This document shows, one piece after another, positions 12,406 through 24,752 of a stretch of 24,752 nucleotides of DNA. Source of the stretch: a virus (lineage: Duplodnaviria > Caudoviricetes); the IMG/VR virus record IMGVR_UViG_3300025108_000363, positions 1 to 24,752 of that record; one strand, given 5' to 3'. The notes beneath the pieces were generated by a model. It made no database searches. It had not been told where the DNA came from and saw nothing but the letters and a program-made list of their open reading frames with translations. A program made the translations under genes and the position numbers. The stretch's first letter is position 1. Every line of letters begins with the position of its first letter.

Positions 12406-15400
12406 ATGAGACATGGCGGAAATGGTTGGGGTGGCACAGGTAATTCTGGTAATTCTAATCCAGGAGGTACAGGCACATCCAGCAATAATGCTGCTACAAT
12501 TAGTACAAGCGCTCAGGATGCACAGCTTGTTTCTATTACAGATGTTATTTCAGAAGGCCCCATACTAGGTTTAGTAGACGGTTCGGCTTCTGTATTCCTG
12601 AATAATGACAGAATTCACGAAGTATCTGCGTCAGGGCAACGTGTATCTCACGGCCCTATGACTATCACTCTTACTAATGGGTCTACTTCAGCAACAATTA
12701 ATAATGCAACTTCTACTACTCCCTTGGTTGTGAATGCCTCATTAGGAGCGCAGTTATTAATACGAGGAGGAATGCTAGCGGAAACAAGCGTAACAAGTAG
12801 TTACGATACTAGACATAAAGTAAGTTTATCTACTTCTTCGAGTACTTTTACCCAAACTATGGTTAGCGCACTCGGTCAACGAGCAAGACCAGATAGTTTA
12901 GTTCCTGGGCGTATTAAACCAACCAGCAGTACTAGTACTCCAGACGGCCTTCCTATAGAAGGTTTTATATGGCGTAGAGTTAGCGGTACCGAGGCTCTTT
13001 GGAGATCAGGTTCTTTTGGTGATTATAACGATTTTAGACTCGACGACGGAACGTACAAGCTAGAACTAGATAAAATAGTAAGTATAAATCCGGGAGGTGC
13101 TAATGGCTCAGCTATAACACTTGCAAGTGCTTGGGACGGAACATCGGGGACATATAGATGGGATAAAATAAGTGTAGTTAATATGGATATCTCTGAGGTA
13201 GGCACTAGGGCTTCTCAGCGAGTACAGGGTGGTACTGTTAGTTTTAGACCAGGCACACTAAACCAAACTCCCATGAATAACAAAGCCTCTACTGCAATTA
13301 GTAGAAGTATTAGCGAACAACTGGAGGTGGGGACTCCTCGATTTTTAGTGGGGAGTGGTAACTGTGGTCTTACAGAAGCTCAGCTTCTGGAAGTGGACAA
13401 AGTAAGATGGCGTATTACTTATCCTGCAGGATTTAAAGCGATCAGTGGTAAAGGCAATGATAAGACTACTTACATACGGTATAAAATAAGTATAGCAATA
13501 AAAGAAGAAGGAGACTCTGATTTCGGAGGCTTCACTGTTATTAGAAACCCTCTAACTCATAGTGGTAACTATACTAACTCTAAAACTTTTGAAAGCGACT
13601 TAAATCTTGAAAGATTTCGCCCTTTTATAGACTTTAAACTAAAAATAGAAAGATTAGACACGGATGATGATCCAGGTTTTAAATCTGTAGGAAAAACTTA
13701 CAAAGACTGGACAAATGTTACTGCAGGCGCCTTAGCAGGAGTGACTTCTGTTCTAAATGAAAAACTTAACCACCCTTATACTGCTATATCTAATGTTTCT
13801 TTTAGCACAAAGCAGTATCAAGGTATACCTCAAAGAACTTATGATCTATACGGTAAAATGGTTAGAGTACCTTCAAACTATGTTACAAGAGAAGAGGCAA
13901 CTAATGGAGTAGCTTCTTATAATAGAAATACAAGCACGGGAGTTATTACTAGCAATTACCAAGACTGGGACGGAACTTTTCGAGATGAATTAGTTTATAG
14001 TAACAACCCTGCTTGGATTTATTATGACATTATTACTAATAATAGATATGGTTTGGGTTCCTTCATTAAAGAAGTGGATATAGATAAGTATGCTCTTTAT
14101 CGCGTTGCAAGATATTGTGATGGCCTGGTTCCTGATGGAAAAGGAGGACTAGAGCCTAGGTTTACATTAAATACCTACTTAACAAAAGCGGCAAATAGTT
14201 ATAAAGTTCTTAAAGATTTAGCAACTAACTTTTTAGGCTTGCTTTACTACTTAGATGGACAGCTTTATACCTCTCTTGATGCTCCAGCAGCTCCGGTCTA
14301 TACATTCAATAAAACTAATGTAATAGATGGTACATTTAGCTACGAGAGTTCTTCGGAGAAAACTAGAAGCAATCAAATTATTGTAAACTGGAATGACCCA
14401 ACAAAAGACTATAAGATGGAGCCTTTAATCGTTGAAGATGAGCGAAATATAGTCAATACAGGCAGAATTGTATCTGAAACTGCAGTTGCTTTCGGCTGTA
14501 CCTCAGAAGGGCAAGCTACAAGATATGGTAAATGGAAGCTATGGACAGCAGCAAACCAAAAAGAAATAGCTAGCTTTTCTGCAAGCCTAGAGGGTGCATT
14601 TGTAGCTCCTGGTGATATAATCAATATCCAAGATGCGGATAGATATGCTGTAAGATTAGGCGGGCGAGTTTCAAATACAGGAACTCTTAGCACTACCACT
14701 ATACCTTTAGACTCTACTGTTCTTTTGAATTCAGGGTCTACATATACTCTAAGCTTGGTATACCCTAAGCCTGCTGCATTTACTCGAGAAGCTGTTACTA
14801 TAGGCGGAGTTAGTTATGAGGCAGGAGATTTAATACATCAAGCTTATGTTAATGGTTCTTTAACAGTAATTGATACTAAAGAAAAGTCTGTAAATGCTAA
14901 AGTATCTGCATCTTCCGGAGCTGAACCTTTAATACTTGACTTCAATGCTAATGTACGAACAGAAACAAAAGATGTAACTTCTAGTCAAATTGGAAGTTCT
15001 GTAACTTCTATCACTGTGACCTCTGCATTTACAGAGGCTCCTACTAGAGAATCCTTGTGGGTTCTTCAAGAGACAAAAACTGGTCTACAAGTAAAAGGAT
15101 CTAAAAAAGAATACAAAGTTTTATCTATCTCTGAAAACTCTGGTAATGTCTATGATATAACGTGTATTGAACATTATGATAGCAAGTGGACTTCTGTAGA
15201 AGAAGATTTTACTACCTACATACAAGGAGACTTAGAGCCTTCTCTGCTAAGCACAGATGTTGTTCCGCCTGTCGAAAACTTGATAGCAAGAAGTCACGGC
15301 AGAGATAATGGTACAGCCCATGAAACCTTACTTGTTTCTTGGGATCCACCAGGAGCAGCGCAGGCTTACGTTAGAAGCAGTACCGGAGGTAGACATAATC

Positions 15401-18400
15401 AGACGATTAGTGAAGAGTACGAATACTTGCTTGGCTATCTAGTAGAGCACAATTTACCTGAATATGAAAATCCTATGAGGGTAAGCAGAGACACAACCGA
15501 ACTTTTATTTTCGGATTTAGTTGCAGACGACTATACAATAACCGTAAGAACAATTAATGCGCTAGATAATGTATCAGAAGCAACTAGTGTTCAAGCGACT
15601 ATAACTGATCGTTTCCAAGATGCTATACCTAGATTCCCTTTAGGTCTTCCGTACGGTGGTAAATCTAATGTTGCTATAAAAGCAATAAATAGTAATGCAA
15701 GCGACGCAGACTACGGGTTATTCGAGCTAGCAAAAGATGTTTACATATTTACTCCTGCTCAATCAAACGGATTCGGAATAAATCAGACTTCGACAGCAGA
15801 TTCTACATATAAGCAAGATGTATCAGGAATTGCAGAAACAACTGCGGTACTTTCTTCAGAGACGGGTACTTTTATTGATAGGCATTATTATATGTCTTTA
15901 AATTCCGCTGTATCTTCTGATAACCTTACACTGCTTAAATATAATAAAACACCAACCCATCTTGTTCCATACTGGTACGATGCAGGAAATGGTAGCGATA
16001 CAAGTGGTTTAACGAATCTTACTGGTAGTGTAAGTGTGTCAGGTTCTACGGTTACAGGCTCGGGCACAAGCTTCGAGTCTGAGCTAGTAGTAGGGGCGCT
16101 TCTACAAACAGCATTTAATACAGCAGCTATAGTTACTTCAGTAGTTAGTGATACAGCTGTGTATATTGATAGAGTTTTACCTACTGTATCAGGCGTAACA
16201 GGTAAAACAAACAATCATAGATTTGATTTTGATAATGAAACTATTATTGCTAAAATATACGCTACAGATAACGGAACAACTAATAAAGTATTCTCTCTGG
16301 AACCTTATATGACATTGGACGCAAATGTCCAAGCACAACAAGGTGTTACTAGAACTCTATTTAAAAGAGTAGTAAATAATGGAGCAGCCGGCACTATTAA
16401 TACTACTGCAGGTACTTTTGACGACCCTGCAAATGGAGCAGCCACAGGGTGGCAGTTAGCAAATCCTGGACTACAAGCCAATGGCGATATTATTTATGCT
16501 ATAAATCGTATCTTTACCAACGATGGTTTACCTCCTCAAGAGGCTAGTTGGTCAGCCGCTTCTATTGTTGCAAGACGGCAAGATGGTGCGGCAGGTAATA
16601 ATGCAAAAGTAGTATCTTTGCGAGCCAGTCAGTCAGTTATAGAATATGCAGCAAATGGTACTACCTCGTCAGGTCAAACTATTACTCTAACTGCGGAGTC
16701 GAAAAACTTCGACAATGCCTATTTTAGGTTCACAGCAGACGATAGTTCTTTCACTACAGTAGATTGGGTTGATGGAGCTACTGCAAATAGTAAAACAGCC
16801 ACCTACAATATACCTACAAGTTATAGCTCAGATCCTATTACTTTCACAGTAGAAGTTAAAGATGGTAATTCAGGCAGTCTTGAAGCTACAGATGTTCTTA
16901 CTATTCCTTCGATTAAGCCTGGTGTGAATGGAAACCCAGGAGCCCCCGGAAACCCAGGAGACCCAGGAGACCCAGGAGACCCAGGAGATGATGGACAAGA
17001 TGCACTGACTGTAGTTATGAGTAACGAAGCTCATGCAGTCCCTAGAAGCTCTACAACCTCCAACCCTGACTTTACAGGTTCGGGAAATACTATTAGAGTA
17101 TTTGAGGGTATAACAGAACTAGACCATGATAATGCAGGCACCACCGCCTCTCACTATAAAGTTGTTACTACAGGTTCTACAAATATTACTCCGGGCGGTT
17201 TAACAGGCGAAAGTTCCGCTGTTCTTTCAGCAACTTTCGGCAATCATAGTAATATGACAGCAGCTACGGCTCTCGTAAAATATACTATAACAGGTAAGCG
17301 AGCAGACGGAACAGCTTTCTCTATCGTTAGATTCCAGTCTTTAACTCGAACAACCGATGGAGCTCCTGGTACTCCCGCTACAGACGAAAAAACAGTTATA
17401 GTCTATAAAAAATATGCCGCAGGAGTAACAGCACCTACAGCAATTACATTTACTTCTGGTAACAATGCAACAAATCAAACCCACTCAAATCCTACAAATG
17501 GACTAGATGGCTGGACTGTTGCTTATCCTTCTATAAGTGTTGAAGGCGATCGAGTTTATTCAGGGCAAAGAACTTTTACGTTAACGGGCGGTGACAGCGC
17601 GTGGACTTTCAACGGAAAAGTTGCAGAAATAAACACAGGCCCAAGAACGGCTACAGTACAGTTGCATTATTCTGCTTCAGCGTCAGCTCCTCCTGCAAAG
17701 CCAACTACTGCCAATACTCACACATTTAACTTTGCAACTAGTACTTTTGGGACTATAAAAACTGGATGGCAGCATGGAGCACCAACCTATGCTTCGGGTA
17801 ACTCTAATAAATACTACTACTCTTTTGCTACTATTACCGAGTCTTCTTTTGGCGGTTCTCAAACTATAACTTTCGGTAATACAACTCAAGCTATAGGATT
17901 CTCAGGTCTGGTTACGTTTACTTCAGCGGGTGTGTTAGGAGATGGTAATTCCAGCATCACGCCTCTTACCACTCATCAAGATGTAAGTAGTTTTATGGAA
18001 GCAGCAGATGTCGCAAATCATATTGGTGGAGCTAACACCTCAACTATTGATGGCGGTAAGATAAACGCAGGCAGCTCTGTCACAGTAGGAACTACCGGAA
18101 CTAACCGAGCAGGATTATCAGGAGTAGGAAATAACGAAACCGATATTAGAGTTTTTTCGGGAGCATCTTTTGCTAACAGAGGAACAGCACCTTTTAGAGT
18201 AACACAAGCAGGTGAATTTAGGTCTTCTACCGGTATTATAGGCGGATTTACGTTTGGTGATGATGCTATGACCACTAGCCAGGATACGATATTAAGACTC
18301 GGTTCTGATTTAGGAAATAACATAGATCAAAGTGTAACTTTATCTTCTAGAGCTGAAGATGATTATGTTATCTATGCTGGTCATGCTCCTACAGATAATG

Positions 18401-19974
18401 ATCCAGTAACTTCTGACGCACCTCCTCCTTTTGGTGTAGAGAAGAATGGTAATGTAACCATGCGCTCTTACCAGCTTACTGATTCTGCAGGCGCTGTTGT
18501 ATTTGACTCAGAAAACTTATTAGGCGGCCCAGTACTATCCCAGATTCAGACTTTAGTAGGAGGCTTTTCTGACACTGTTACTACTTCTGTGCATGCCTCT
18601 GGTTCTATCAAAGTAGAGCTAGGGCAAAGTCAGAACGTACAAATTGGTTTTGAGGTACCTCTCGGGAACCCTTATGTGAGTAACGTAACAACAAACACTA
18701 CTGACGCTATGAATGCGCTACCTTCAGCTATTAAAGTAAATGTTGAATATTCTACTAATAATGGGTCATCTTGGAGTTTATTTGGAGCTCAAACGTTCTC
18801 TCGACTATCTAGTACAAATCCCAATGCCTCCACAAGTGCTAGCCAGTATCTTGTTCACGGAGACTCTTATGATGCTCGCTCAGGAGGAACACGTCACGTA
18901 GCACATATTGTTAGTAACAAAGGGGCAGTGTCTTCTACTGGTAGCTTAACAGGGACTATAACAGGTTCCGGAAACTTAGGAGCAGGTACTTACTTATTTA
19001 GAATAGCTCAAGTTTCAGCGAGTTCAGGTAATTCAGGTATTGTATGGACTGCTGGCTCCTACACTGGAGGTTACACATATGCAAAGTATGGTACCGATTC
19101 TAACAATAATATCTCTACTGCGTATGCGAAAACCGCAGACAGAGTATACATTGTAGGCTCTAGTTCGTCGACAGGCGGTACAGCCGGCGAAGGCTATAGT
19201 ATTAATACAAATCTAAGTCAGCCTCATATTAAAGACTCTACTTTTACTGTAGAGTATATGCCTATTACGGGAGGTAGTTTTACAGGTTCAATAAACTGGG
19301 GAGCAGATACGGCAAGCATAGGTTATGGTAATTACGGTACAGGCACCGATATATTTTTCATGAATCTGGGTGATGATGCCACCAGTATGATACTAGGGTT
19401 AAATGGCAGTAGTTTAACTTTGGCGAATAACCTTAGCCCTCACCACCATTTTGACTCAAATGGAGATATTAGATTTTCGGGAGACTTAAAACAGCTTGAT
19501 GACGGTGATACTAAGATATCTTTCACCAACGACAAAATAACTTTTAAGGCGGGTAACGCCACGATGATGGAACTAGTCGAAGTCAGCACTGGGTATGACT
19601 ATGTTAGAATGGGAAATACTGGTGATGGCAATGATACTATTACGTTTAATTTATCAGCAGGCTCGGGTGTCTTTACAGGAAATGTAACAGCTTACTCGGA
19701 TATAAGTCTTAAAGAAAATATAGAAGTTATTGATAATGCCGTAGATAAAGTCAGTAAACTAAGAGGTGTTACTTTTGACCGAATCGACAAAGAAGATATT
19801 CCTAGACAAACAGGACTTATTGCTCAAGAGCTAGAAGAAGTATTACCAGAAGCTGTAGAGACTAGTGAACTAACCGGCATAAAGTCAGTAGCTTATGGTA
19901 ATGTTGTAGGCCTTTTAGTAGAAGCTATCAAAGAACTCAAAGAAGAAATCGAAGAGTTGAAAAGGAGTAAATAA
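12406..19974 (+). CDS. Giant central tail fibre / tip attachment protein (lambda gpJ-like) with FN3-like region, collagen-linked modules and C-terminal peptidase S74 chaperone
   Basis: gpJ motifs DVISEGPILGLVDG, YSNNPAWIYYD...NRYGLG, YCDGLVPDGKGGLEPRF, AFGCTSEGQATRYGKW and PGDIINIQD. C-terminal SDISLKENI...GLIAQELEEVLPEAV...LLVEAIKEL. Shine-Dalgarno AGGAG precedes the start. Confidence 0.92.
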   Translation: MRHGGNGWGGTGNSGNSNPGGTGTSSNNAATISTSAQDAQLVSITDVISEGPILGLVDGSASVFLNNDRIHEVSASGQRVSHGPMTITLTNGSTSATINNATSTTPLVVNASLGAQLLIRGGMLAETSVTSSYDTRHKVSLSTSSSTFTQTMVSALGQRARPDSLVPGRIKPTSSTSTPDGLPIEGFIWRRVSGTEALWRSGSFGDYNDFRLDDGTYKLELDKIVSINPGGANGSAITLASAWDGTSGTYRWDKISVVNMDISEVGTRASQRVQGGTVSFRPGTLNQTPMNNKASTAISRSISEQLEVGTPRFLVGSGNCGLTEAQLLEVDKVRWRITYPAGFKAISGKGNDKTTYIRYKISIAIKEEGDSDFGGFTVIRNPLTHSGNYTNSKTFESDLNLERFRPFIDFKLKIERLDTDDDPGFKSVGKTYKDWTNVTAGALAGVTSVLNEKLNHPYTAISNVSFSTKQYQGIPQRTYDLYGKMVRVPSNYVTREEATNGVASYNRNTSTGVITSNYQDWDGTFRDELVYSNNPAWIYYDIITNNRYGLGSFIKEVDIDKYALYRVARYCDGLVPDGKGGLEPRFTLNTYLTKAANSYKVLKDLATNFLGLLYYLDGQLYTSLDAPAAPVYTFNKTNVIDGTFSYESSSEKTRSNQIIVNWNDPTKDYKMEPLIVEDERNIVNTGRIVSETAVAFGCTSEGQATRYGKWKLWTAANQKEIASFSASLEGAFVAPGDIINIQDADRYAVRLGGRVSNTGTLSTTTIPLDSTVLLNSGSTYTLSLVYPKPAAFTREAVTIGGVSYEAGDLIHQAYVNGSLTVIDTKEKSVNAKVSASSGAEPLILDFNANVRTETKDVTSSQIGSSVTSITVTSAFTEAPTRESLWVLQETKTGLQVKGSKKEYKVLSISENSGNVYDITCIEHYDSKWTSVEEDFTTYIQGDLEPSLLSTDVVPPVENLIARSHGRDNGTAHETLLVSWDPPGAAQAYVRSSTGGRHNQTISEEYEYLLGYLVEHNLPEYENPMRVSRDTTELLFSDLVADDYTITVRTINALDNVSEATSVQATITDRFQDAIPRFPLGLPYGGKSNVAIKAINSNASDADYGLFELAKDVYIFTPAQSNGFGINQTSTADSTYKQDVSGIAETTAVLSSETGTFIDRHYYMSLNSAVSSDNLTLLKYNKTPTHLVPYWYDAGNGSDTSGLTNLTGSVSVSGSTVTGSGTSFESELVVGALLQTAFNTAAIVTSVVSDTAVYIDRVLPTVSGVTGKTNNHRFDFDNETIIAKIYATDNGTTNKVFSLEPYMTLDANVQAQQGVTRTLFKRVVNNGAAGTINTTAGTFDDPANGAATGWQLANPGLQANGDIIYAINRIFTNDGLPPQEASWSAASIVARRQDGAAGNNAKVVSLRASQSVIEYAANGTTSSGQTITLTAESKNFDNAYFRFTADDSSFTTVDWVDGATANSKTATYNIPTSYSSDPITFTVEVKDGNSGSLEATDVLTIPSIKPGVNGNPGAPGNPGDPGDPGDPGDDGQDALTVVMSNEAHAVPRSSTTSNPDFTGSGNTIRVFEGITELDHDNAGTTASHYKVVTTGSTNITPGGLTGESSAVLSATFGNHSNMTAATALVKYTITGKRADGTAFSIVRFQSLTRTTDGAPGTPATDEKTVIVYKKYAAGVTAPTAITFTSGNNATNQTHSNPTNGLDGWTVAYPSISVEGDRVYSGQRTFTLTGGDSAWTFNGKVAEINTGPRTATVQLHYSASASAPPAKPTTANTHTFNFATSTFGTIKTGWQHGAPTYASGNSNKYYYSFATITESSFGGSQTITFGNTTQAIGFSGLVTFTSAGVLGDGNSSITPLTTHQDVSSFMEAADVANHIGGANTSTIDGGKINAGSSVTVGTTGTNRAGLSGVGNNETDIRVFSGASFANRGTAPFRVTQAGEFRSSTGIIGGFTFGDDAMTTSQDTILRLGSDLGNNIDQSVTLSSRAEDDYVIYAGHAPTDNDPVTSDAPPPFGVEKNGNVTMRSYQLTDSAGAVVFDSENLLGGPVLSQIQTLVGGFSDTVTTSVHASGSIKVELGQSQNVQIGFEVPLGNPYVSNVTTNTTDAMNALPSAIKVNVEYSTNNGSSWSLFGAQTFSRLSSTNPNASTSASQYLVHGDSYDARSGGTRHVAHIVSNKGAVSSTGSLTGTITGSGNLGAGTYLFRIAQVSASSGNSGIVWTAGSYTGGYTYAKYGTDSNNNISTAYAKTADRVYIVGSSSSTGGTAGEGYSINTNLSQPHIKDSTFTVEYMPITGGSFTGSINWGADTASIGYGNYGTGTDIFFMNLGDDATSMILGLNGSSLTLANNLSPHHHFDSNGDIRFSGDLKQLDDGDTKISFTNDKITFKAGNATMMELVEVSTGYDYVRMGNTGDGNDTITFNLSAGSGVFTGNVTAYSDISLKENIEVIDNAVDKVSKLRGVTFDRIDKEDIPRQTGLIAQELEEVLPEAVETSELTGIKSVAYGNVVGLLVEAIKELKEEIEELKRSK
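16921..17001 (+). repeat. Collagen-like (Gly-X-Y)9 coding repeat containing four perfect ACCCAGGAG tandem copies (16952-16987)
   Basis: Encodes GVNGNPGAPGNPGDPGDPGDPGDDGQD; the 9-nt tandem unit is read directly from the sequence. Confidence 0.92.
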
Positions 19975-20907: not shown

Positions 20908-21246
20908 ATGAGTGCAGCCCGCTACAACCTAGTTATTGACCAAGGTTCCGACTTTGCCATTAACTTTACTGTTAAAGACAACGGATCAGTTAAAGACCTG
21001 ACAGGCTACTCTGCGCGTGCTCAAATGAGAACTTCAAAGACAGCTTCCTCAGTCGCGGCTACTTTTGCGTGTGCTATTATCACTCCTTCAAATGGAACAA
21101 TTACAATGTCTTTAGCAAATTCAGTAAGCACCCCCTTAACCTCAGGCACTTATGTTTATGATTTAGAAATCTTCACAGCGAACAATGCCAGCGTAACTAG
21201 GCTAATTCAAGGGTCTGTAGACCTCACTCAAGAGGTTACTCGATAA
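20908..21246 (+). CDS. Side-fibre attachment / collar protein (T5 p132 / LtfC / BppU-N-like beta sandwich)
   Basis: YNLVIDQGSDF...DLTGYSARAQMR...GTITMSL...YVYDLEI...RLIQG pattern. Confidence 0.7.
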   Translation: MSAARYNLVIDQGSDFAINFTVKDNGSVKDLTGYSARAQMRTSKTASSVAATFACAIITPSNGTITMSLANSVSTPLTSGTYVYDLEIFTANNASVTRLIQGSVDLTQEVTR

Positions 21247-21611
21247 TGGCAATTACAATTACGGCAACGCCTATACAGAATGGTATCGAAGTTACTGGAG
21301 GAAGTACAACTATTACCGCAGCAGGTGTTGCACTTGCTAACACTTCCGCAGATGGTATGGGTATTACTAGCATATCAGGTTTAAGTGCTACAAACGTACA
21401 AGATGCCATTGAAGAGCTTGCAGGACAAAATTTTCAACAAGATAACACACCAACAGGGTCTCAAGTAAACGAAGGAGATACATGGTACGATACGGACGAC
21501 AATCAATATAAAATATATCGCGAAACAAGCAATGGAGTATATCAGTGGGTACCTATAATTGTAGGTTCAGCTGAAGACGATTCAGATACGCTTGACGCAG
21601 GAGCCTTTTAA
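21246..21611 (+). CDS. Short fibre adaptor protein
   Basis: ATNVQDAIEEL coiled motif, TPTGSQVNEGDTWYDTDDNQYKIY knob motif and C-terminal LDAGAF. TAATG-coupled to the previous gene. Confidence 0.6.
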   Translation: MAITITATPIQNGIEVTGGSTTITAAGVALANTSADGMGITSISGLSATNVQDAIEELAGQNFQQDNTPTGSQVNEGDTWYDTDDNQYKIYRETSNGVYQWVPIIVGSAEDDSDTLDAGAF

Positions 21612-21632: not shown

Positions 21633-22793
21633 ATGGCTCAAACAATTCAAATCAAACGTAGTACATCTACTGCGACACCCAGCAGTCTTACAGCAGGCGA
21701 GCTAGCGTATTCAGGCAAGTCAGATAGTAACAAACTATTTATTGGACACCCTGACGGCACTACAGGCCCTGTTGCTATCGGTGGTCAATACTATACTGGT
21801 GTTATTGATAGTGCGGCAAGCGCTAATACTGCTAGTAAGCTCGTATTACGAGATGGTTCAGGAAATTTTTCCGCAGGCACAATCACAGCAGCTTTAACTG
21901 GTAATGTAACTGGTGATCTAACAGGTAACGCTGATACTGCTACTACTCTTGAGACTGCACGTACAATCGGTGGAGTGTCATTTGACGGTTCTGCTAATAT
22001 TAACCTTCCCGGTGTTAATGCATCAGGTAATCAGAATACTTCTGGAAACGCTGCAACCGCCACAGCTCTTGCGAGTGGCAGAACGATTGCAATCACAGGG
22101 GACTTAGGGTATACTTCTCCTAGCTTTGACGGCTCTGGTAATGTTACAGCACAAGGTACTCTTGCCACTGTGAACAGTAATACTGGCTCTTTCGGTTCTG
22201 CTACTGCTATTCCAGCAATCACTGTAAATGGAAAAGGTCTTATTACCGCGGTTAGTACTAATAATATTTCTTCTAGTTTTACTCTAGCGGCTGACAGCGG
22301 TACTAGTGATACTTTCAATAATGGTGAAACTCTTACCTTAGAAGGTGGAACCGGTGTTACTTCTACCGTTAGCAATAATAAAGTTAGTTTTGCAATCGGA
22401 CAGGCAGTTGCTACCAACTCTAATGTACAGTTCAATAATGTTACTGTTGATGGTACTCTAGCTTCTGATGACATTACTTCTACAAATATCTCGGTTGCTG
22501 GTAATGCTACAATTACGGGCAATCTTACAGTTGAAGGCACTACAACTACTGTTGACTCTACTACTGTTGCCATTGGTGATAACATCTTGGTACTTAACAA
22601 AGATGAGTCAGGAACACCTTCTGCAAATGCTGGTATCGAAGTTGAACGAGGAACTGCGACAAATGTATCGCTTCTTTGGAATGAAACAAACGATAACTGG
22701 ACTGTGAGCAATGGAAGTGCAACTTCCGTAATATTAACTGCCGCAAACTTTGGAAGCACTTATACAGGTGCAATTGATGGCGGATCATTCTAA
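21633..22793 (+). CDS. Side tail fibre protein (Mtd-N-like N-terminus, fibre shaft repeats)
   Basis: MAQTIQIKRS...LTAGELAY N-terminus, two GNA.TAT.L...RTI...SFDGS.N repeats, GNLTVEGTTTTVDS and AGIEVERG fibre motifs, and C-terminal IDGGSF. Confidence 0.78.
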   Translation: MAQTIQIKRSTSTATPSSLTAGELAYSGKSDSNKLFIGHPDGTTGPVAIGGQYYTGVIDSAASANTASKLVLRDGSGNFSAGTITAALTGNVTGDLTGNADTATTLETARTIGGVSFDGSANINLPGVNASGNQNTSGNAATATALASGRTIAITGDLGYTSPSFDGSGNVTAQGTLATVNSNTGSFGSATAIPAITVNGKGLITAVSTNNISSSFTLAADSGTSDTFNNGETLTLEGGTGVTSTVSNNKVSFAIGQAVATNSNVQFNNVTVDGTLASDDITSTNISVAGNATITGNLTVEGTTTTVDSTTVAIGDNILVLNKDESGTPSANAGIEVERGTATNVSLLWNETNDNWTVSNGSATSVILTAANFGSTYTGAIDGGSF

Positions 22794-22840: not shown

Positions 22841-23071
22841 ATGGCACAAACGATTAAACTAAAGCGTTCGTCTACAGCGGGCGCTATCCCTACTTCTGGA
22901 CAACTGGAGTTAGGCGAAGTTGCTATCAATACTGCGGATGGTCGTATGTATATGAAAGACGGAGCCAACTCTATTGTATGGGTAAATAAAACTTCTGAAA
23001 TTACAGGAACCACTCCTCAAGCATCGGACGGAACAGACAAGCCCGTAGGTTATGTTTGGTATGTAGTCTAA
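22841..23071 (+). CDS. Mini fibre connector (Mtd-N-like domain plus short C-terminal GYVWY motif)
   Basis: MAQTIKLKRSSTAGAIPTSGQLELGEVAINTADGRMYMK is paralogous to the N-terminus of 21633..22793. AGGAG Shine-Dalgarno upstream. Confidence 0.75.
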   Translation: MAQTIKLKRSSTAGAIPTSGQLELGEVAINTADGRMYMKDGANSIVWVNKTSEITGTTPQASDGTDKPVGYVWYVV

Positions 23072-23072
23072 G

Positions 23073-24752
23073 ATGACTATTAAGGTTTGGAACGGTTCCG
23101 CAGTACAAGAACCAGAGCAAATAGTAGTTAAAGCTGCAGCGGGAACGTTGCGGTTTGTAAACTATGTCGTACAGAAAGTTACAGATGGAAGTCTGAACAC
23201 TGTATGGAATGCTATCTATAATACAAGCCGATCTACTGATACTTCTAGAAGTTCTACAACTACTTTTACTACTACTTTCGATACTAGTGCATCTACGAAT
23301 GTCAGTACTACTACTGGATTCGATACAATTAGAGGGACTTCAAGAAGCACAAGCAGTACATTTACTACTGCATACAATACTTCTGCTGTTACCTCTAAAT
23401 CTACCACGACTGCTTATAGTACCACATTTGGTACAAGTGCTAGTACGACTACAACATACGTAAGTAACTTTGATACGACTCGTGGCACCACTGTGGACAC
23501 TACCACAGCCTTCAATACTACTTTTGCGACTTCTAGAGATACGACTACCGAGTATACGACTACCTTTGACACTGCTACGAGTAAGTCAACGACTACCTCG
23601 TTTACAACAACTTTTGAAACGACTCGTGGCACTGCGGTAGATACTACTACTACATTTACTACTACTTTTGCAACTAGCAAAACAACTAATACAGTATTTA
23701 CTACTACGTTCAATACTACGACTACTCGTAGTACCACTACTGCGTATACTACAACTTTCAATACGAGCACAACTACTTTACGAAACACCACGACTACGTA
23801 CACTACTAGCTTTAACACTAGTAAAACTACTACGACTACGTTTCCCACTGAATTTGCAACAGGTACAAGCAGAGATACCACAACCACGTATACTACTACG
23901 TTTAATACTACTAGATCTACTACAATAGATACTACTACTGCTTATACTACTACGTTTAATACTACTCGATCTACAACGATAGATACGACTACTACGTTTA
24001 ATACTACGACTACTCGCAGTACTACAACTACGTATACCACCACTTTTAATACTTCGAGAGGTACTTCTAAGTCTACCACTGTAAGTACTACTACAACTTT
24101 TAGTACTTCTCGAAGCACTAGTAGAGATACTACTACTGTGTTTAATACGCAGACTTCTAGAGGCACAAGCAAAGATACTACTACAACTTTTAATACTTCT
24201 AGAGGCACTAGCAGAGGCACAAGCAGGTCCACTACTACTACATTTCTAACAGGAACCTCACGCAGTACAACAACAGCTTTTATTACTGCTACAAGCAGAT
24301 CCACCTCTAAAGATACAACTTCCGTTTACAACACGAGCAGAGGGACTTCTAGAGTTACGGATAAAGCTACTACTACTGCTTTTGCCACAGGTACTAGCAG
24401 ATCTACCACGACCGCCTTTGCCACTTCAAGAGGTACAAGTCGTGGTACAAGTCGTGGAACAACTACCGTATTCGGAACAGCTACAAGCCGAGGCACTACT
24501 ACAGCCTTTAATACGACTACTACCTTTACTACAAGCCGTGCGTCCAACACCGTATACACTACAACCAGAGGCACAGGCACTTCTAGATCTACGACTACTA
24601 CTTTTGCTACTGCTACAAGTCGAGGCACTGGAGAGAGTAGAAGCACGACTACTACATTTAACACAAGTAGGGGTACAACTTTTGGTACAACTACTGTATT
24701 CGGAACCGCAACGTCTAGAGGAACAGGAGAGTCTAGAGGTACTACCACAAGT
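23073..24752 (+). CDS. Thr-rich repetitive putative fibre protein, at least 560 aa, 3'-truncated (absent from the ORF track)
   Basis: ATG 23073 is 1 nt after the previous stop and the frame is open to the window end: MTIKVWNGSAVQEPEQIVVKAAAGTLRFVNYVVQKVTDGSLNTVWNAIYNTSRSTDTSRSSTTTFTTTFDT...TTTFNTSRGTSRGTSRSTTTTF... Confidence 0.88.
   Translation, partial: MTIKVWNGSAVQEPEQIVVKAAAGTLRFVNYVVQKVTDGSLNTVWNAIYNTSRSTDTSRSSTTTFTTTFDTSASTNVSTTTGFDTIRGTSRSTSSTFTTAYNTSAVTSKSTTTAYSTTFGTSASTTTTYVSNFDTTRGTTVDTTTAFNTTFATSRDTTTEYTTTFDTATSKSTTTSFTTTFETTRGTAVDTTTTFTTTFATSKTTNTVFTTTFNTTTTRSTTTAYTTTFNTSTTTLRNTTTTYTTSFNTSKTTTTTFPTEFATGTSRDTTTTYTTTFNTTRSTTIDTTTAYTTTFNTTRSTTIDTTTTFNTTTTRSTTTTYTTTFNTSRGTSKSTTVSTTTTFSTSRSTSRDTTTVFNTQTSRGTSKDTTTTFNTSRGTSRGTSRSTTTTFLTGTSRSTTTAFITATSRSTSKDTTSVYNTSRGTSRVTDKATTTAFATGTSRSTTTAFATSRGTSRGTSRGTTTVFGTATSRGTTTAFNTTTTFTTSRASNTVYTTTRGTGTSRSTTTTFATATSRGTGESRSTTTTFNTSRGTTFGTTTVFGTATSRGTGESRGTTTS
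23889..23996 (+). repeat. Near-identical 54-nt tandem duplication (YTTTFNTTRSTTIDTTTA/T x2) within the Thr-rich gene
   Basis: TATACTACTACGTTTAATACTACT(A/C)GATCTAC... occurs at 23889 and 23943, with mostly synonymous differences. Confidence 0.8.

Follow-up and report, generated by a model that had tools for sequence, protein, structure and literature searches.

Mirror-complementary halves of a threonine-rich phage side-fiber protein suggest a long β-hairpin

The question raised by this locus was what structure is encoded by the threonine-rich gene that closes a set of phage side-fiber genes. The DNA analyzed, here called the window, is the 24,752-nucleotide stretch forming positions 1 to 24,752 of IMG/VR record IMGVR_UViG_3300025108_000363, from a tailed virus (Caudoviricetes). 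The only contig of this record ends inside the gene (23073 to 24752, + strand) after codon 560, leaving it open at the 3′ end; judged by its nearest relative, L001, the full-length protein would have about 1,400 residues. Because the contig end cuts the gene, only the first ~40% of the protein is present, and the mirror arm described below is invisible in the window. The part that is present consists of a conserved 50-residue head (23073 to 23222, +) with three pseudo-repeats of the form I-x-V-x-x-x-G-[ST]-L, and an N-terminal arm (23223 to 24752, +). In this arm the odd positions hold T, F, Y, R, or K and constitute a ladder face, and the even positions hold small residues.

A sequence-only reading of this DNA had described a Thr-dominated stretch lacking Cys, with a single Pro, built from even-length units that keep Phe, Tyr, and Arg on one codon parity. 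Complete counts bore out this description. Residues 51–560 include 232 Thr among 510 residues (45%), no Cys, and one Pro, and His is absent from all 560 residues. Within this span every Phe (37/37), Tyr (11/11), Arg (37/37), and Lys (8/8) is at an odd position, and the even positions carry all of the Asn (20/20, counted from residue 50), Asp (15/15), and Gly (28/28) and most of the Ser (66/71) and Ala (23/26). The combined F/Y/R parity of 85/85 was reached by none of 20,000 shuffles (best shuffle, 60). Successive F/Y/R residues are separated by an even number in every case, with 4 or 6 in 69 of the 84 gaps, and the Fourier analysis that had been proposed as a check gave a peak at period 2 of ~100 times the mean for the window arm. 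Mixed synonymous codons had been taken as a sign of selection at the protein level, and our results agree: the mixing of Thr codons resembles that in five other window genes, and dN/dS between the window protein and L001 is 0.07 (207 synonymous and 61 non-synonymous differences). Of the amino-acid differences from L001 past residue 50, the ladder face carries 11 and the small-residue face 37. The observation is real and strongly selected.

By its sequence, the window encodes the head and tail genes of a siphophage distantly related to T5; its major tail protein is 30–33% identical to those of T5-like phages. The gene order is central fiber J, an LtfC-like gene, two fiber segments of 121 and 386 aa, a 76-aa adaptor, and the Thr-rich gene, placing the latter at the end of the side-fiber genes, in keeping with the location at the side-fiber tip that had been proposed for its product. 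The LtfC-like side-fiber attachment protein (20908 to 21246, +) matches phrog_3304 with an E of 3e-18 and Pfam LtfC with an E of 1.6e-4, below the cut-off. The 121-aa fiber linker (21246 to 21611, +; C-terminus ...DAGAF) has no family match in PHROG or Pfam, and its sequence holds, in one chain, a G-D-T-W-Y strand and then a Y-K-I-Y hairpin. The 386-aa side-fiber segment (21633 to 22793, +; MAQTIQIKRS... to ...DGGSF) matches tail-fiber PHROGs with an E of 1.6e-20. The adaptor (22841 to 23071, +) has an N-terminus like those of long-tail-fiber distal subunits (PHROG E about 1e-9 to 1e-5) and a C-terminus with the motif P-x(n)-G-x-V-W-Y-V-V, and the Thr-rich gene starts one base past its stop codon. 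Elsewhere in this module, J (12406–19974; 2,522 aa) includes a short stretch of collagen and carries a Peptidase_S74 chaperone at its C-terminus, and the 205-aa gene after J may encode a separate adhesin. Between 21246 and 23071, a C-terminal D-[AG]-G-[AS]-F followed by a next gene starting MAQTI-x-[IL]-KRS resembles a repeated docking pair. The seven sequencing runs containing at least half of the words of the Thr-rich gene (one of which may be the source of the window) are all labeled "marine metagenome"; 13 runs with less than half of the words were left out of this habitat reading.

Relatives were collected by searching IMG/VR and GTDB with the head and tail, which gave 64 distinct full ORFs of 234–2,084 aa. 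The first round (58 translated loci, 16 of them incomplete) yielded 57 complete and 16 incomplete ORFs; with the incomplete ones and 15 duplicates dropped, 42 distinct ORFs remained. In the second, 3 duplicates and 9 ORFs open at the 5′ end were dropped from 34 tail-found loci. L043 and L089 were also dropped, having early ends without a tail; these ORFs (L043:7001, 526 aa; L089:3940, 300 aa) stop early through a frameshift or an assembly error. Record IMGVR_UViG_3300038825_001103 (L042, L053) has a head of this gene at both contig ends, representing either two copies or a circular overlap. Common to the relatives are the ~50-aa head and a ~30-aa tail. The nearest, L001 (1,408 aa), is identical to the window protein at 512 of 560 positions in an ungapped alignment. 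Recovery of the full gene with its C-terminal part, which had been recommended, succeeded for the relatives, with their conserved tail, but not for the window itself. Four runs that hold the window also carry contigs ~83% alike to the C arm of L001, at a depth similar to that of the N-arm contig. The loose end of the latter corresponds to window DNA near 24,400, and those runs contained no contig bridging the N and C arms.

Searches outside this set returned little. The head, the tail, and a whole 433-aa member had no match among 50,697 phage records with the low-complexity filter on. In genome contigs, the head profile found none. The tail profile found L097 as its single genuine member; its 71 remaining loci were short weak matches (E 2e-5 or worse), mostly in Actinobacteria. 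A protein homologue search gave 13 proteins, crowded with chance candidates. The window protein (P0001) and four full-length relatives had no Pfam or PHROG match except a weak DUF2510 on the last 14 residues, the window protein had only a compositional match, far below cut-off, in NCBIfam, and the head profile had no Pfam, PHROG, or PDB match.

The full-length relatives revealed that the two halves of the protein are mirror complementary. Every anti-diagonal of each protein was scored for an aromatic residue opposite Arg, Lys, or His. In eight near relatives (1,408–1,781 aa) one ungapped anti-diagonal, i+j = L+22, stands out, with 108–141 aromatic-cation pairs and 1–3 like-with-like pairs, and this mirror diagonal spans the protein from base to tip. 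In L001 it has 112 pairs of an aromatic with Arg/Lys/His and 2 like-with-like pairs, and Thr lies opposite Thr; its score of 110 compares with 35 for the second-best diagonal and a maximum of 31 for shuffles that kept parity. Among the 42 distinct first-round ORFs, 36 exceed all 200 of their parity-kept shuffles, and the six that do not are all 258–524 aa. The ladder faces of five long proteins form 1,934 pairs: 987 T-T, 592 F/Y-R/K, and 5 aromatic-aromatic. In 34 of the 42 first-round proteins the partner of an aromatic residue is R, K, or H in 1,167 of 1,477 cases, the rest being mostly N, I, V, and A, and the spacing between rungs is almost always 4 or 6 residues. When the window arm was set against the C arm of L001, 44 of 45 R/K residues faced F/Y, 39 of 48 F/Y faced R/K/H, and 135 of 146 odd Thr faced Thr. 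An inverted repeat in the DNA was rejected as the cause, base complementarity being 0.39 on the diagonal and 0.397 at the best other offset. An acidic subfamily (L041:7001-9445 and L062:5514-9578, the latter with 117 D+E vs. 69 R+K) keeps the mirror register and has aromatic partners that are more often non-cationic.

The register can also be predicted from the ends of the protein. With an offset calibrated on L001, the end motifs by themselves give a register that coincides with the top-scoring diagonal in 59 of 62 proteins. Allowing short gaps, mostly of one residue, restores pairing in L075 and L190, which are among the misses, and in the tip region of L021; L073 pairs poorly even when gapped (8 rungs). 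One-residue bulges in the zipper recur, as in VDH vs. EYR (L021:10001-16255) and DIGD vs. TDT-F (L075:4610-6184). The two arms, delimited by tip motifs and ranging from 74 to 848 residues, are within 0–6 residues of each other in length in 29 of 30 proteins; the C arm of L016 has ~16 extra unmatched residues. Rung order differs freely between subfamilies. Only one of 215 collinear ladder columns among six near relatives has swapped polarity, so covariation by substitution is weak and the comparative evidence rests on the matched insertions and deletions and on the differing rung orders of the subfamilies. The relatives are, moreover, not independent.

In the relatives the center is a short Gly/Lys or Asp-Glu-Asn loop or a variable insert of 70–90 residues, and comparison of this central tip domain with the PDB, PHROG, and Pfam gave nothing convincing. 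Parity flips across the center in many members, a behavior expected of a loop. Alternating faces combined with pairing at constant i+j are the signature of an antiparallel two-stranded sheet. From these features and the parity-flipping loop or insert at the center we infer an intrachain hairpin. A thin fiber would likely result as the chain doubles back and zips up along its length, and the mirror pairing strongly implies a fold-back with the N and C termini at the base. In our preferred interpretation, which we consider probable, the protein is a single-chain antiparallel β-hairpin forming a whisker on the end of the side fiber, with a variable tip that would meet the host first. Of the β-ribbon or β-helix filament suggested by the sequence-only reading, the long two-faced β structure is retained and the β-helix is not, there being no fixed coil period.

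Structure prediction gave no confident model. AlphaFold2 returned a mean pLDDT of 36 for L016 alone and a pLDDT of 42 with a pTM of 0.27 for L050 with 30 sequences. In the low-confidence L050 model, for which contacts were not given, long strands at 41–69 and 183–207 coincide with segments predicted to pair; a Foldseek search with it gave no match at E ≤0.001. The ESM Atlas model had a pLDDT of 0.28, and its matches were unnamed viral clusters only.

A different arrangement of the same fold-back is an unlikely but serious candidate: three hairpins, bundled or interwoven, could make up a needle of six strands whose small-residue faces point inward, an extreme form of the tip of T4 gp37. The gp37 needle (D10-D11) is likewise described as a fiber-tip chain that runs out and back, with both termini at the base and the receptor part at the turn; three such chains of about 216 residues each interweave over 20 nm (PMC9603124). 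Phage fibers are mostly trimers (PMC12143355). One face of the Thr-rich protein is almost exclusively S/T/A/G/N/D, which suits close packing, and a ~50-aa coiled-coil gene found near it in 34 of 42 loci could encode an assembly chaperone. The Thr-rich protein differs from gp37 in its arms (74 to about 1,000 residues), its 45% Thr, and its aromatic/cation mirror code, and neither gp37 nor any PDB chain matched its sequence (D10/D11 homology was sought with PHROG and Pfam, and with the head profile in the PDB). The His motifs of gp37 bind central iron ions; the window arm lacks any His with which to form such sites. The three pseudo-repeats of the head would also suggest one chain capping a trimer.

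The pairing code alone fits pairing within and between chains alike, and an antiparallel head-to-tail homodimer, in which the N arm of each chain zips with the C arm of the other, would make a tether about twice as long. We regard this as improbable in view of the center, where a Gly-rich loop or an inserted domain is found and where an indel of one residue that flips parity is tolerated (L006 vs. L007).

Insect TxT antifreeze proteins and bacterial ice-nucleation solenoids had been offered as analogs, and the 45% Thr, the strict alternation, and a weak 16-residue F/Y Fourier peak could be taken to favor a β-solenoid or flat Thr array binding ice or mineral surfaces. In the ice-binding solenoids, the TxT motifs of consecutive loops are aligned on a flat face (bioRxiv 10.1101/2025.03.18.644030). 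The Thr-rich protein, by contrast, has neither a fixed period nor a TxT ladder: at the best lag, aromatic falls over aromatic in just 58% (window) or 42% (L001) of cases, and there are never more than two consecutive T-T pairs. Thr runs on the ladder face do not exceed 3, shorter than chance, since each of 1,000 shuffles had runs of at least 5. Antiparallel mirror pairing is not predicted by a solenoid, and we find this analogy very hard to sustain. A disordered mucin-like, O-glycosylated spacer or shield, to which low complexity, low model confidence, and a nearby candidate glycosyltransferase could point, is just as implausible, because perfect parity, mirror pairing, matched arms, and a dN/dS of 0.07 would be purposeless in a disordered chain, and the single Pro and 85/85 parity agree with the earlier distinction of this protein from mucins.

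The single-chain hairpin suggests the following mechanism. In L001 it would have ~665 pairs and, at 0.335 nm per residue, would extend roughly 220 nm. The rungs would be cross-strand cation-π pairs, and their aperiodic order would fix one register, like the base pairs of an RNA stem. At the base, the head and tail would form a joint fold that docks on the fiber protein encoded upstream. Because the head has three similar repeats, it may cap a trimeric adaptor, giving one hairpin per fiber. Hanging from the end of the side fiber, the whisker would have a long flexible reach that might increase encounters with sparse marine hosts, and would capture the host with its variable tip. In the near relatives the tip is short, which makes a role in receptor contact less evident for them. 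L001 is net positive (120 R+K vs. 40 D+E). Downstream enzymes might glycosylate the Ser/Thr face.

The neighborhood of the gene is also conserved. In 35 of 42 loci, and in every one of the 17 further loci that were looked at (17 of 22), the upstream gene closes with P-x(n)-G-x-V-W-Y. These upstream genes otherwise differ, encoding fiber proteins of 61–1,086 aa; in L097 the upstream gene is collagen-like, and collagens are trimers. Genes for the ~50-aa coiled-coil protein, a ~295-aa protein, and a ~235-aa protein occur close by at 34, 32, and 30 of the 42 loci, respectively. Among the 22 further loci, 21 have the ~295-aa gene and 20 the ~235-aa gene no more than 3 kb downstream, and both misses are short of sequence. 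For the window phage these genes would lie past the window end, and they are known from relatives only. The ~295-aa protein weakly resembles a glycosyltransferase, for which it is a candidate: 5 of 14 members match Capsule_synth (PF05159) at E up to 1 (best E 8e-4), the protein of the L001 locus scores 14.7 bits against a cut-off of 20, and an Atlas cluster with 13% PF05159 scores 0.95 for it. It has no match in the PDB. For the ~235-aa protein no family was found; its look is perhaps GT8-like. The search for neighboring glycosyltransferases that had been advised thus gave a candidate gene following the hairpin gene in relatives. Virion glycosylation has a precedent in mycobacteriophages (PMC12619734, citing Freeman 2023), and the hairpin is possibly glycosylated by the conserved downstream enzyme. 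Two phages speak against strict coupling: DLP6 has the same enzyme, with the other two genes, after a non-Thr fiber, and KVP40 has it with no annotated fiber gene nearby. In Stenotrophomonas phage DLP6 (L093:3-3448) the trio follows an unannotated long fiber ORF without a Thr ladder that spans the genome ends, and the C-terminus of this ORF appears Hint-like by eye.

One member comes from a cultured bacterium. L097:100-19790 (JAOALD010000003.1), a block of phage structural genes taken to be a prophage, lies on a 520-kb contig from SAR92 strain H921. The available text of the paper on this Yellow Sea coastal isolate contains no mention of a prophage (PMC10746254). The member has 988 aa, 63 rungs, and no like-with-like pairs. 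Fiber genes, the collagen-like protein, and the hairpin cassette lie in this block between the capsid and head-tail adaptor genes, which suggests that the cassette may also sit on head or neck fibers. Shorter Thr-rich proteins of ~215 aa with a weaker mirror lie between a tail fiber and a Capsule_synth-like gene at L092:6321-6968, L241:1327-1980, and L240:1322-1876. The first, Lull_041 of Caulobacter phage Lullwater (215 aa), has 10 rungs, which none of 2,000 plain shuffles reached (10 of 2,000 for BL198 gp046), and no homology to the head or tail of the hairpin protein. The text available for the paper on these Caulobacter phages holds no information on it (PMC11053796). The Quill_5.2 copy is annotated as shorter and changes character near its end.

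Known systems share some of these features. T-even gp38 is likewise encoded by a separate gene right after a trimeric fiber gene, caps the fiber end, and has variable segments; it is described as apparently trimeric (PMC3157838). Pfam gave no match to the GP38 domain (PF05268), and no homology to gp38 appeared in PHROG either. In phage S16 gp38 is reportedly monomeric, and gp38 is not known to have a long hairpin stalk. With T5 and DT57C, in which LtfC anchors the lateral fibers (DT57C; PMC10713586), the window phage shares a T5-like tail and an LtfC-like gene heading the side-fiber genes. Its fiber differs in being a series of short adaptor proteins ending in the hairpin gene, whereas that of DT57C/T5 is a long LtfA/pb1 trimer. 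Bovine ultralong CDR-H3 regions have a stalk and knob, with a two-stranded antiparallel stalk of about a dozen residues per strand and a variable knob, and Trp-zipper hairpins have cross-strand aromatic/cation pairs; compared with these the hairpin arms are 10–100 times longer and unrelated. We know of no free two-stranded ribbons of such length. An atlas of phage fibers recognizes 16 classes, and its main text contains neither of the words hairpin and threonine (PMC12143355). No description of a self-complementary hairpin design was found in searches of the open-license PMC and bioRxiv literature. We give about even weight to the wider proposal of a new fibrous class: a free two-stranded β-ribbon of up to ~300 nm, held in one register by a pairing code, tuned in length by matched arm insertions, fitted with swappable tips, moved as a cassette onto the tail, side, and head fibers of unrelated phages, and sugar-coated by the phage's own enzymes.

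If the fold is true, a simple complementary code sets a unique long-range register in a protein, and this would be the longest β-hairpin known to us. The family would then offer natural material on which to test the rules of cross-strand pairing, and programmable protein zippers and nanofibers could be modeled on it. The short members (234–430 aa) and the copy in a cultured strain make the proposal directly testable. For the phages themselves, the hairpin would be an overlooked appendage of diverse marine phages, missed by both annotation and structure predictors.
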